From contig JABXKD010000078.1 in the NCBI GenBank assembly GCA_013375475.1, forward strand, positions 1 through 16,416: DNA of 16,416 nucleotides. The letters are read 5' to 3'. The notes beneath the pieces are model-generated. The model was not told the DNA's origin and ran no database searches. It saw nothing but the letters and a program-made list of their open reading frames with translations. This document shows, piece by piece, positions 7,390-8,286 of this stretch. The first letter of the stretch is position 1. Every line of letters starts with the position of its first letter. The stretch is from Promethearchaeota archaeon. Lineage in GTDB: Archaea; Asgardarchaeota; Lokiarchaeia; Sigyniarchaeales; SOKP01. The position numbers and the translations under genes are program-made.

Positions 7390-8286
7390 TCATTCAATTT
7401 TTATTGGGTTTATTAACATTAAAGTGTGAATTTTTTTCCAATATTCCTCAATGTTCCAATCAATGTTTTTTTTAATTTTTTCAGATAGATCCTTAAATAT
7501 CTCTTTTATTTCTAATGTATGAAAATAGTTAATTGACGGAGCAATAACAGAAATCATATATTGCTTTTCTCCATATCTTTCTTTTTTGTCAGGATAAGAA
7601 TCAAAAAAAAGATAACCACGATTATTTAGATTTTTGATGTCAAGTAAAACACCCTCCGGCTTTGTTATTTTATCATGCCCATAAATTGAAGTTGCTACCG
7701 TAAACAATTGGTTTACAATATCTTCTAAGGGTATTGGAAAGGGTTTATCCTCAGGGAAATATCTATTTAATTCTGGGCCGAATTTATCGTCCCAAGTTGC
7801 TAAAAATAAACAGATAAAAAAGTCTTTTTGATCAATAATAGGTATTCTCTTTTTCAAATTCGCAGACGAAAGCGTTTCATTAACCATATTGTTTAATGCT
7901 TTAACTCTTTTATTTCGAGCGATTTTACCAGATAATATTGAGAGTAAATCTTTCTCGTTAAATGGTTTAGTAAGATAATCGTCTGCGCCAAGTGATTTCC
8001 CAAATCTTATATCTTTATTAGTATTAAGGGCAGAAAGAAAAAGAAATGGAATCCGGTTCCAGCGTGGATTATTAGAAATTGCTTGAAAAAATTCATAGCC
8101 ATCCATTTCAGGCATCATGATGTCACTTATAATAATATCGGGGATTTCTTCAAGATGGGATAAAATTTCTACAGCTTCTTTTCCATTTTTAGCAGTTATA
8201 GCTTTATAATCGTTCGTTTTTAATAATAATTTTAAATTAAACAATAGATCTAGGTTATCCTCAACAACAAAAATTAGAGGTTTCAA
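7390..8286 (-). CDS. Response regulator: N-terminal receiver plus C-terminal putative longin/uDENN-like domain
   Basis: Receiver motifs VVEDN, ISDIMMPEMDG (D55), FLSA, YLTKPF. The C-terminal domain begins LFLATWDDKFGPELNRYFP. TTG start. The receiver call is firm; the output-domain call is inferred. Confidence 0.9.
   Translation of the reverse strand: MKPLIFVVEDNLDLLFNLKLLLKTNDYKAITAKNGKEAVEILSHLEEIPDIIISDIMMPEMDGYEFFQAISNNPRWNRIPFLFLSALNTNKDIRFGKSLGADDYLTKPFNEKDLLSILSGKIARNKRVKALNNMVNETLSSANLKKRIPIIDQKDFFICLFLATWDDKFGPELNRYFPEDKPFPIPLEDIVNQLFTVATSIYGHDKITKPEGVLLDIKNLNNRGYLFFDSYPDKKERYGEKQYMISVIAPSINYFHTLEIKEIFKDLSEKIKKNIDWNIEEYWKKIHTLMLINPIKIE

Follow-up and report, generated by a model that had tools for sequence, protein, structure and literature searches.

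How the regulation of Rag and Arf GTPases by GATOR1, folliculin (FLCN) and C9orf72-SMCR8 arose in eukaryotes is an open question, and one gene of an Asgard archaeon bears on it, that of a two-component response regulator which may act on a small GTPase through a longin output domain. The gene lies in a 16,416-nucleotide stretch of a Promethearchaeota archaeon (assembly GCA_013375475.1, contig JABXKD010000078.1, positions 1 to 16,416 of the forward strand), hereafter called the window, and it closes an operon that also encodes an ArsR-type regulator, a small GTPase and a sensor histidine kinase. The initial annotation of the window had proposed that the output domain resembles a longin/uDENN domain and that one of its residues, R237, is a folliculin-like arginine finger, which would make the protein a GTPase-activating protein (GAP) controlled by receiver phosphorylation. 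Structure prediction, motif conservation, gene linkage, domain fusions and a complex model that passed its controls were used to follow this up. We conclude that the output domain very probably belongs to the longin fold class, as judged from predicted structures, and that it likely binds the co-encoded Rag/Arf-like GTPase. The reading we favor, and hold tentatively, makes it a longin GAP of the FLCN, NPRL2, SMCR8 and C9orf72 class that is switched by phosphorylation and acts on this GTPase. Coordinates of all features are collected in Table 1.

The classification of the protein as a response regulator was borne out. Its open reading frame (ORF) begins at TTG, and the receiver is the only Pfam match in the protein. 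The acidic pocket, the phospho-acceptor Asp and the conserved Lys that define two-component response regulators are present; in an alignment of 69 full-length homologs, D10, D55, K107 and P108 are each conserved at a rate of at least 90%. A histidine kinase gene lies 45 base pairs (bp) upstream. In the structural model, helix 5 of the receiver is prolonged by about 30 residues toward the output domain, an extension that would fit dimer-based control. The linker that follows, residues 142-158, was modeled with low confidence (predicted local distance difference test, pLDDT, of 59 and 71 for the blocks across residues 141-160).

The C-terminal 154 amino acids (aa), which hold the output domain, had no Pfam match even at E<=10 and no NCBIfam match. 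Against PDB sequences, phmmer returned chance-level matches only (E 0.27-1.8), and a profile of the family reached E 0.64 or worse. The domain was judged by its fold. AlphaFold2 gave a pLDDT of 87.2 for the full-length protein (69-row alignment), and a pLDDT of 91.4 with a predicted template modeling score (pTM) of 0.86 for the domain alone (114-row alignment). Secondary structure assigned by DSSP was the same in both models (β159-166, β170-177, α187-202, β211-217, β222-232, β240-249, α254-272 and α279-291), that is, a five-stranded antiparallel sheet without an N-terminal helix and with two C-terminal helices. The available text of PMC10933270 gives the longin topology as β1-β2-α1-β3-β4-β5-α2-α3, without the N-terminal helix of Roadblock, and assignment of the domain to Roadblock was rejected on topology. 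The order of strands and helices proposed in the initial annotation was reproduced almost residue for residue by the two models, and the nine peptide segments it had quoted are all present at the residues it had assigned to them. The protein ends 7 residues beyond longin helix 3 with no further domain, so that it has neither a DENN nor an NPRL2-specific C-terminal domain.

A Foldseek search of the PDB with the domain-only model, for which 50 rows were inspected, pointed to the same class of structures that had been suggested from the sequence. All 7 matches at E<=0.001 were longin-bearing chains: the top match was 6ulg_N of the FLCN-FNIP2-Rag-Ragulator complex (E 3.2e-4), and the others were 8yqg_B (from a Lokiarchaeota Roadblock-Longin protein), the Lst4 longin (4zy8), the SEA complex (8adl_S) and, from three GATOR1 entries, chains of 363-370 residues. 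The next tier comprised DENND10, 8dhb_J of the active FLCN GAP complex (TM-score normalized by query, TMq, of 0.62), more GATOR1, SEA and FLCN entries, C9orf72-SMCR8 and CPLANE. The 12 best distinct PDB entries were longin-GAP/DENN-type complexes or the Lokiarchaeal longin (E 3e-4 to 7e-3, prob 1.00), and no longin of SNARE, TRAPP or adaptor type was among the 50 rows listed. With the full-length model as query, only receiver domains were returned. In the ESM Atlas, the neighbors of the domain were Promethearchaeota clusters, one of which carries Pfam NPR2 on 19% of its members, and this lends weak side support, as do sub-threshold Pfam Folliculin matches in 3 of 21 and 3 of 114 family members; a eukaryotic NPR2/C9orf72-like cluster at 0.77 serves as a lead only. 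PAS and LOV domains also appeared in the Foldseek list, at E 0.03-0.25 (prob 0.25-0.9), as would be expected if the domain were another small α/β sensor fold, PAS-like or profilin-like, that binds a ligand and is not a true longin. We consider this very improbable, since the β-β-α-β-β-β-α-α order with two C-terminal helices is that of longins, every Foldseek match at E<0.01 was a longin, and no Pfam PAS match falls on the domain.

Two features of the domain relate it to longins with GAP activity, the WDxxxGP motif in the β1-β2 hairpin and R237 in the β4-β5 loop. In the alignment of 114 family representatives (A3), W165 was found in 107, D166 in 84, G170 in 106 and P171 in 105, and in the AlphaFold2 model G170-P171 forms the start of β2. 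R237 lies at the codon that had been assigned to it, and is Arg in 81 of the 114 representatives, in 26 of 29 homologs drawn from genomic loci and in 47 of 69 full-length proteins, among which Y254 (67), F228 (61), M244 (59) and P178 (59) exceed it in conservation. The candidate finger is widely kept, but not invariant; of the rows without it, 6 have Lys, 5 are gapped at this position and the remainder carry various other residues. The fingers of the eukaryotic proteins are located in the β4-β5 loop as well, and the FLCN peptide with which this loop had been compared presumably has the same DxxxR spacing ahead of Arg164. R237 is a putative counterpart of this Arg164 and of Arg78 of NPRL2.

The significance of the hairpin follows from a comparative study of longins (PMC12290439). 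According to the available text of that study, FLCN, NPRL2, SMCR8 and C9orf72 have in common a GP motif at the β1-β2 turn, which lies close to the arginine finger in space and which FNIP2, NPRL3, adaptins, TRAPP and DENND proteins lack; in C9orf72, W33-D34 stand just ahead of G38-P39 and are essential for GAP activity. The spacing of WDxxxGP in our protein equals this C9orf72 numbering. The same text describes a class of Asgard longins that carries GP and Arg in an equal structural arrangement. The hairpin had been called typical of uDENN/NPR2-type longins, of which the conserved motif itself stands, whereas the uDENN attribution does not hold in general, as that study reports no GP motif in longins of the DENND family or in others that are not GAPs. 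Going by these motifs, a single domain appears to unite the WD and Arg features that are split between two subunits in eukaryotes.

The next evidence comes from the genomic arrangement. The response regulator gene is the last of a same-strand row, in which the ArsR-type gene is followed after 31 bp by the GTPase gene, after another 107 bp by the histidine kinase gene and after 45 bp by the response regulator gene, and the ArsR-type protein probably controls the operon. The GTPase had been called adjacent; in fact the kinase gene intervenes, and the GTPase gene lies 2.7 kilobases (kb) upstream within the row. We collected 40 loci of up to 18.5 kb each around family members, hand-picked among the top-scoring matches for flank length and taxonomic spread, and searched them for homologs of the window's GTPase (phmmer, E<=1e-3). 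A homolog was present in 30 of 40 loci (14/20 and 16/20 in the two halves of the collection), and in 29 of them no more than 4 kb separated it from the response regulator gene. In comparison, the 21 GTPase matches in the organism's own 3.92-Mb genome lead to a chance expectation of about 9% per 18.5 kb, or about 5% per 9 kb. The complete order of ArsR-type regulator, GTPase, histidine kinase and response regulator recurs in 12 of the 40 loci, and in many related loci the kinase and response regulator genes are found together. A second, paralogous arrangement places the response regulator directly beside a GTPase of 183-188 aa with an HKxD motif (loci L034, L035, L062, L064 and L068), and four further loci contain GTPases of 406-462 aa (L036, L042, L045 and L046).

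The GTPase of the operon consists of the G domain only. Its first Pfam match was Gtr1_RagA (PF04670; 3.1e-23, 82.8 bits against a cut-off of 22), with Arf a close second (2.8e-21, 76.2 bits). The match spans positions 1-161 of the 232 positions of the Gtr1_RagA model, and the protein has no C-terminal roadblock domain. Among PDB sequences, the best matches were 8yl2_A and 8zla_A, both titled 'GTP-binding protein', followed by Arl2, Arl3, Arf6, Gtr1 and RagC. The P-loop (G16-T23), T44, D63-x-x-G-Q67 and H128-K-x-D131 are all recognizable, the last of these being of the HKxD form that we take to be typical of Rags. Across 42 homologs, G16, G21, K22, T44, D63, G66, Q67, K129 and D131 were invariant, and H128 was found in 41. 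The invariance of Gln67 is as expected for a switch that depends on a GAP.

To these data we added a model of the complex, in which the GTPase (A4) was combined with a pair of longin domains (A3), GTP and Mg, and which was computed in 3 runs with 3 controls. In the interface score ipSAE (interaction prediction score from aligned errors), the runs reached 0.80, 0.45 and 0.81, with a median of 0.80, against at most 0.24 for the controls; the mark used for this score is reached by 58 of 80 solved complexes and by 2 of 110 mismatched pairs. The runs shared at least 81% of their contacts, with a partner pLDDT of at least 79. In the model both longin copies contact the GTPase. Copy 1 does so through residues 165-172 (WD..GP), 203-206 and 237-238 and through parts of helix 1, and copy 2 through 167-171, residues of helix 1 and 237. 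On the side of the GTPase, the interface consists of residues 18-19 of the P-loop, 42-46 of switch I and 67-70 of switch II, including Gln67, and longin residues 165-172 contact 18-19 and 67-70. R237 and the GP loop share one predicted interface, in which R237 is the sole family-conserved basic residue. The model supports binding of the longin domain to the GTPase, which we regard as likely.

The agreement with the proposed features goes beyond chance, since the domain defines a family that widely keeps them. When the C-terminal 154 aa were searched exhaustively by HMMER, 171 representative clusters (50% identity) were returned with a threshold of E<=0.001 and 111 with one of E<=1e-10, and a word-indexed search returned 198 close relatives, nearly all of about 298 aa and with a receiver. 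Among whole genomes, a match was found in 168 of 400 sampled from the window's phylum, including 124 of 134 from its own family, while the organism's own genome has a single copy. Three relatives fuse the longin domain directly to a G domain: P0154 to one of Ras type, P0190 to one of Arf type, and P0272, with a partial longin match, to an Arf domain. P0154 and P0190 both retain WD..GP and the Arg. The same longin domain also occurs behind PAS (P0157), RsbRD_N (P0133), DUF1638 (P0144) and hybrid kinase-receiver modules (P0177 and P0204), and in a protein with HATPase_c only (P0235). Because it is found behind such different modules, the domain seems, on its architectures, to behave as a portable output module.

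This portability allows another explanation, in which the longin is a generic interaction or dimerization output that acts on some other target, such as membrane or trafficking factors or the kinase, and the GTPase is merely co-regulated, perhaps upstream of the kinase. Besides the varied modules in front of the domain, 10 of the 40 loci have no nearby GTPase, and small GTPases of MK-D1 are generally encoded outside operons with longin or roadblock genes, according to the available text of Tran et al. (PMC10933270). We regard this explanation as unlikely all the same: 29 of the 40 loci have a GTPase no farther than 4 kb away, against roughly 5% expected by chance, the link is present in two paralogous gene arrangements, three relatives are fused to a G domain, and the modeled interface consists of exactly the family-conserved residues and the switches of the GTPase.

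Three loci contain tandem pairs of receiver-longin genes (L051:7573-9456, L058:7960-9890 and L059:8552-10423). In L051 and L058, one copy of each pair is without the loop Arg, and in L059 both copies have it; the Arg-less copy of L058 has GA in place of GP, and its neighbor keeps both GP and Arg. With n=3, these pairs with one Arg-less copy are reminiscent of the single-finger heterodimers of eukaryotes, an analogy only. In the organism's own genome, a 470-aa ORF (C62:435-1847, + strand) matches the GTPase at E 2.3e-17 and, in the same frame, Folliculin below threshold (E 0.003, 18.4 bits), and it may be a longin-GTPase fusion. All labeled relatives are Asgard archaea apart from one response regulator homolog (P0012) and one GTPase homolog (P0377), which NCBI labels 'Candidatus Nanopelagicaceae bacterium'. 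This is probably a binning or labeling error.

Taken as a GAP, the protein would work as follows. The MASE3-PAS histidine kinase would phosphorylate Asp55 of the receiver, and the receiver with its long helix 5 extension would then alter the pairing or the exposure of two longin domains. The longin pair would form a cup for the co-encoded Rag/Arf-like GTPase, with the WDxxxGP hairpin placed on the P-loop and switch II beside Gln67, and R237 would enter the nucleotide pocket from the β4-β5 loop as an arginine finger. GTP would be hydrolyzed and the GTPase switched off. The response regulator probably couples the histidine kinase to switching the Rag-like GTPase off, as a predicted activity; dimerization and the direction of the phospho-control are likewise predictions of the scheme.

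A number of observations weigh against reading the protein as a longin GAP. In 33 of 114 representatives R237 is lacking; these are mainly the rows of greatest divergence, in which WD or GP is often eroded as well. The fold matches have modest E values (best 3.2e-4), with root-mean-square deviations of 4.4-6.5 Å and identities of 10-16%. Pfam Folliculin (PF11704) and NPR2 (PF06218) do not match the protein at E<=10, six-frame searches of the organism's own genome with both models miss the window and give weak matches elsewhere, and sub-threshold Folliculin matches occur in just 3 of 114 family members (3 of 21 in another set; best E 0.0032). Since the Pfam models miss the gene and the fold matches longins, the protein is placed in the longin fold class and outside the Folliculin and NPR2 sequence families. 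In the linkage data, some of the 10 loci without a GTPase in the fetched stretch are cut off by the end of a contig, the selection of loci was made by hand among top matches, and related genomes are non-independent samples. As for the complex, one of the three runs gave just 0.45, the runs used their own alignments and a ligand, unlike the calibration, and the pass may reflect likeness to the solved complexes 7mge, 8dhb and 7t3b. In the GTPase, a basic residue follows T44 of switch I (Arg at position 45 in 36 of 42 homologs, Lys in 5 and Leu in 1), and by analogy with what has been proposed for Arg53 of MglA it could in principle act in cis. Finally, longin and roadblock platforms are mostly guanine nucleotide exchange factors (GEFs) or scaffolds and not GAPs, according to the available text of PMC10933270.

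Much of this would also be expected if the longin domain bound the GTPase without being a GAP, whether as a GEF, as a state-specific effector or scaffold, or as a GAP co-factor that, as the Roadblock protein MglB does with MglA, puts catalytic residues of the GTPase itself in place, in which case R237 would have a role in binding or in structure. Longin and roadblock dimers are described mainly as GEF platforms in the available texts of PMC10933270 and PMC3747258, the Arg is dispensed with in those 33 representatives, the basic residue 45 of the GTPase is near the position described for the intrinsic Arg53 of MglA, and linkage, fusions and the complex model speak for binding and not for catalysis. 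We consider this possible and on balance somewhat unlikely. The GP motif is specific to GAP longins, as far as the available text of PMC12290439 goes, and 105-106 of our 114 representatives retain it, in combination with the Arg; among solved folds, GAP complexes come closest; and Lys in 5 and Leu in 1 of 42 homologs at position 45 are unlike an essential cis finger.

NPRL2-like longins fused with two-component domains have already been published in Asgard archaea (Liu et al., bioRxiv 10.1101/2020.10.19.343400), where, in the available text, growth control was argued to remain centered on two-component systems. The receiver-longin protein seen here in a Loki-type genome has precisely this kind of architecture. 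The text passages of Liu et al. that were compared mention no conserved Rag-like GTPase operon, WDxxxGP motif or Arg finger. The Asgard longins of PMC12290439 (Traffic, 2025) resemble our domain in having GP at the β1-β2 turn beside a conserved Arg and in their structural similarity to FLCN and SMCR8, and in the available text a possible GAP activity was proposed for them, with ArfR or Rag/Gtr partners being asked about. That set consists of a heimdallarchaeial reference and 14 other Asgard longins, whereas the present domain is fused to a receiver, comes from a Loki-type lineage and has a partner in its operon; receiver, response regulator, two-component, operon and Lokiarch are not mentioned in the main text of that paper, the supplement being outside the search. 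Because both two-component longin fusions and GAP-type Asgard longins have been published, at least in the texts available, the gene is of an already known, uncharacterized kind, to which it adds a concrete GTPase partner. Nothing specific to an operon of a receiver-longin protein and a GTPase was found in the literature search, and an archaeal two-component census (PMC5847659) leaves GTPase, longin and MASE3 unmentioned. The recurrent operon and fusion link to Rag/Arf-like HKxD GTPases, WDxxxGP and Arg in one chain, and a controlled complex model were likewise absent from the texts searched, a search that did not extend to supplements and figures.

With FLCN-FNIP2 (acting on RagC/D), NPRL2-NPRL3 of GATOR1 (RagA/B) and C9orf72-SMCR8 (Arf), the protein shares the longin fold, the GP hairpin, an Arg in a surface loop and, as its putative client, a Rag/Arf-type GTPase with a switch II Gln. 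In those systems the GTPase is cupped by two longin domains (PMC9473554, and the available text of PMC8213707), as in our complex model. The eukaryotic GAPs differ in being obligate heterodimers with the finger in one subunit only and in having DENN or NPRL2-specific C-terminal domains, and the clients of FLCN and GATOR1 are lysosomal Rag heterodimers with roadblock C-terminal domains, not a bare G domain of 179 aa. In comparison, the present protein is a single 135-aa longin with a C9orf72-like WD and an SMCR8/FLCN-like Arg, without DENN and presumably driven by a receiver, at 10-16% identity to the eukaryotic GAPs and without membership in their Pfam families. The MglA-MglB(-RomR) polarity module of Myxococcus is similar in that it combines a prokaryotic small GTPase, a dimeric regulator of the roadblock/longin superfamily and a link to a receiver protein. 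According to the available text of PMC10933270, MglB is a Roadblock protein without an Arg finger and MglA uses its own Arg53. RomR has its receiver separate from the GAP. Among full-length structural matches, the best was to the dimeric 8yqg, by its PDB title a longin domain from a Roadblock-Longin protein of Lokiarchaeota (TMq 0.62, TM-score normalized by target, TMt, 0.61, over 157 columns); identity was 11%, and the protein of origin is not a response regulator. No paper describing PDB 8yqg, 8yl2 or 8zla was found in the literature search.

The combination of features in one chain invites a more speculative idea, that the protein represents an ancestral homodimeric form of the eukaryotic longin GAPs, in which one longin carries both a C9orf72-type WD 'holding' face and an FLCN/NPRL2/SMCR8-type Arg finger, pairing is set by His-Asp phosphotransfer, and the system is a forerunner of GATOR1/folliculin signaling to Rags. 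We find this possible but doubtful. If it were true, a two-component system would directly set the nucleotide state of a Rag-like GTPase, and the tandem pairs with an Arg-less copy (L051 and L058) would be first steps toward eukaryotic heterodimers. Real GAP activity would mean that the mechanism of the longin GAPs is older than eukaryotes and was first wired to two-component signaling; were there none, the two proteins would still form a clean system in which to learn what the pairing of longins with GTPases does in Asgard archaea. In either case the locus offers a small and concrete pair for experiments, a 135-aa longin and a 179-aa G domain from one operon, with receiver phosphorylation as a switch that can be mimicked in vitro.

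Table 1. Positions of the operon, of the domains and sites of the response regulator, and of the surrounding genes in the window.
Feature	Positions	Strand	Basis
ArsR/SmtB-type helix-turn-helix (HTH) regulator of 111 aa, opening the row	11542-11877	-	Pfam HTH_5 1.1e-11; NCBIfam HTH_metalloreg 63 bits vs 55
Small GTPase, G domain only, 179 aa, Rag/Arf-like	10971-11510	-	Pfam Gtr1_RagA, Arf
MASE3-PAS-HisKA-HATPase sensor histidine kinase, 843 aa	8332-10863	-	Pfam MASE3 6e-79, PAS, HisKA, HATPase_c
Response regulator, 298 aa: receiver, helical linker, predicted longin output domain	7390-8286	-	ORF list, Pfam, AlphaFold2
Receiver, residues 5-118	7933-8274	-	Pfam PF00072 Response_reg E 1.3e-24, 86.9 bits vs cut-off 30.2
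Receiver phospho-acceptor Asp55 (codon)	8122-8124	-	
Long helix, residues 111-141, prolonging receiver helix 5 toward the output domain	7864-7956	-	DSSP on AlphaFold2 model
Predicted longin domain, 135 aa, residues 157-291, β-β-α-β-β-β-α-α	7414-7818	-	AlphaFold2 and Foldseek
WDxxxGP motif W165-D166-D-K-F-G170-P171, β1-β2 hairpin	7774-7794	-	Conservation, complex model
R237, candidate arginine finger, β4-β5 loop (between β222-232 and β240-249)	7576-7578	-	
CCG cysteine-rich domain protein and adjoining 4Fe-4S dicluster protein	210-1801	-	
Second, orphan PAS-rich histidine kinase, 954 aa	2449-5313	-	
Operon flanks: cysE, cysK, Lrp/AsnC-type regulator, cysteinyl-tRNA synthetase	5551-7347, 12045-12563, 12849-14294	+	cysE TIGR01172 228 bits vs 211; cysK TIGR01139 441 vs 351
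Roadblock/LC7 protein, 134 aa	14310-14714	-	Pfam Robl_LC7 1e-14; MAPKK1_Int 5e-5
Loki-CTERM protein, 181 aa, C-terminal sorting domain	14870-15415	-	NCBIfam NF033507, 20.6 bits vs cut-off 19.9
196-aa protein with terminal zinc ribbon	15733-16323	-	

The window is AT-rich (GC 32.5%), and homologs of its proteins are labeled Promethearchaeota, Lokiarchaeota or Hermodarchaeota by their sources. Small shares of it, 0.08 and 0.05, are contained in two sediment metatranscriptome runs (X1 and X2). With 90-100% likeness, contigs of these runs match parts of two genes, that of the GTPase (about 10856-11483) and that of the kinase (about 9225-9916), one contig of 151 letters being identical to positions 11175-11325. 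Contigs with loose ends also match short stretches of conserved sequence in the receiver. No contig of X1 or X2 covers the longin part, an absence that is not informative. Because RNA libraries can contain DNA, we draw no conclusion on expression from these runs.

Several of the genes around the operon keep their positions in loci of the same genus. The gene of the Roadblock/LC7 protein, which could be a further regulator of the GTPase, is about 2.4 kb from the first gene of the operon, and its neighborhood is held in the same-genus loci L065, L066 and L067 and not in more distant loci. Since it accompanies the operon only in these, it was set aside as a true regulator of the GTPase. The cysE-cysK pair adjoins the response regulator gene in the same-genus loci L048, L049 and L065-L067; a link to amino acids through the cys genes would echo the biology of GATOR1 and FLCN, with a synteny that is confined to close relatives. 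The relative position of the orphan histidine kinase gene is unchanged in the same five loci, and the CCG and 4Fe-4S dicluster proteins at the far end of the window form a heterodisulfide-reductase-like pair.

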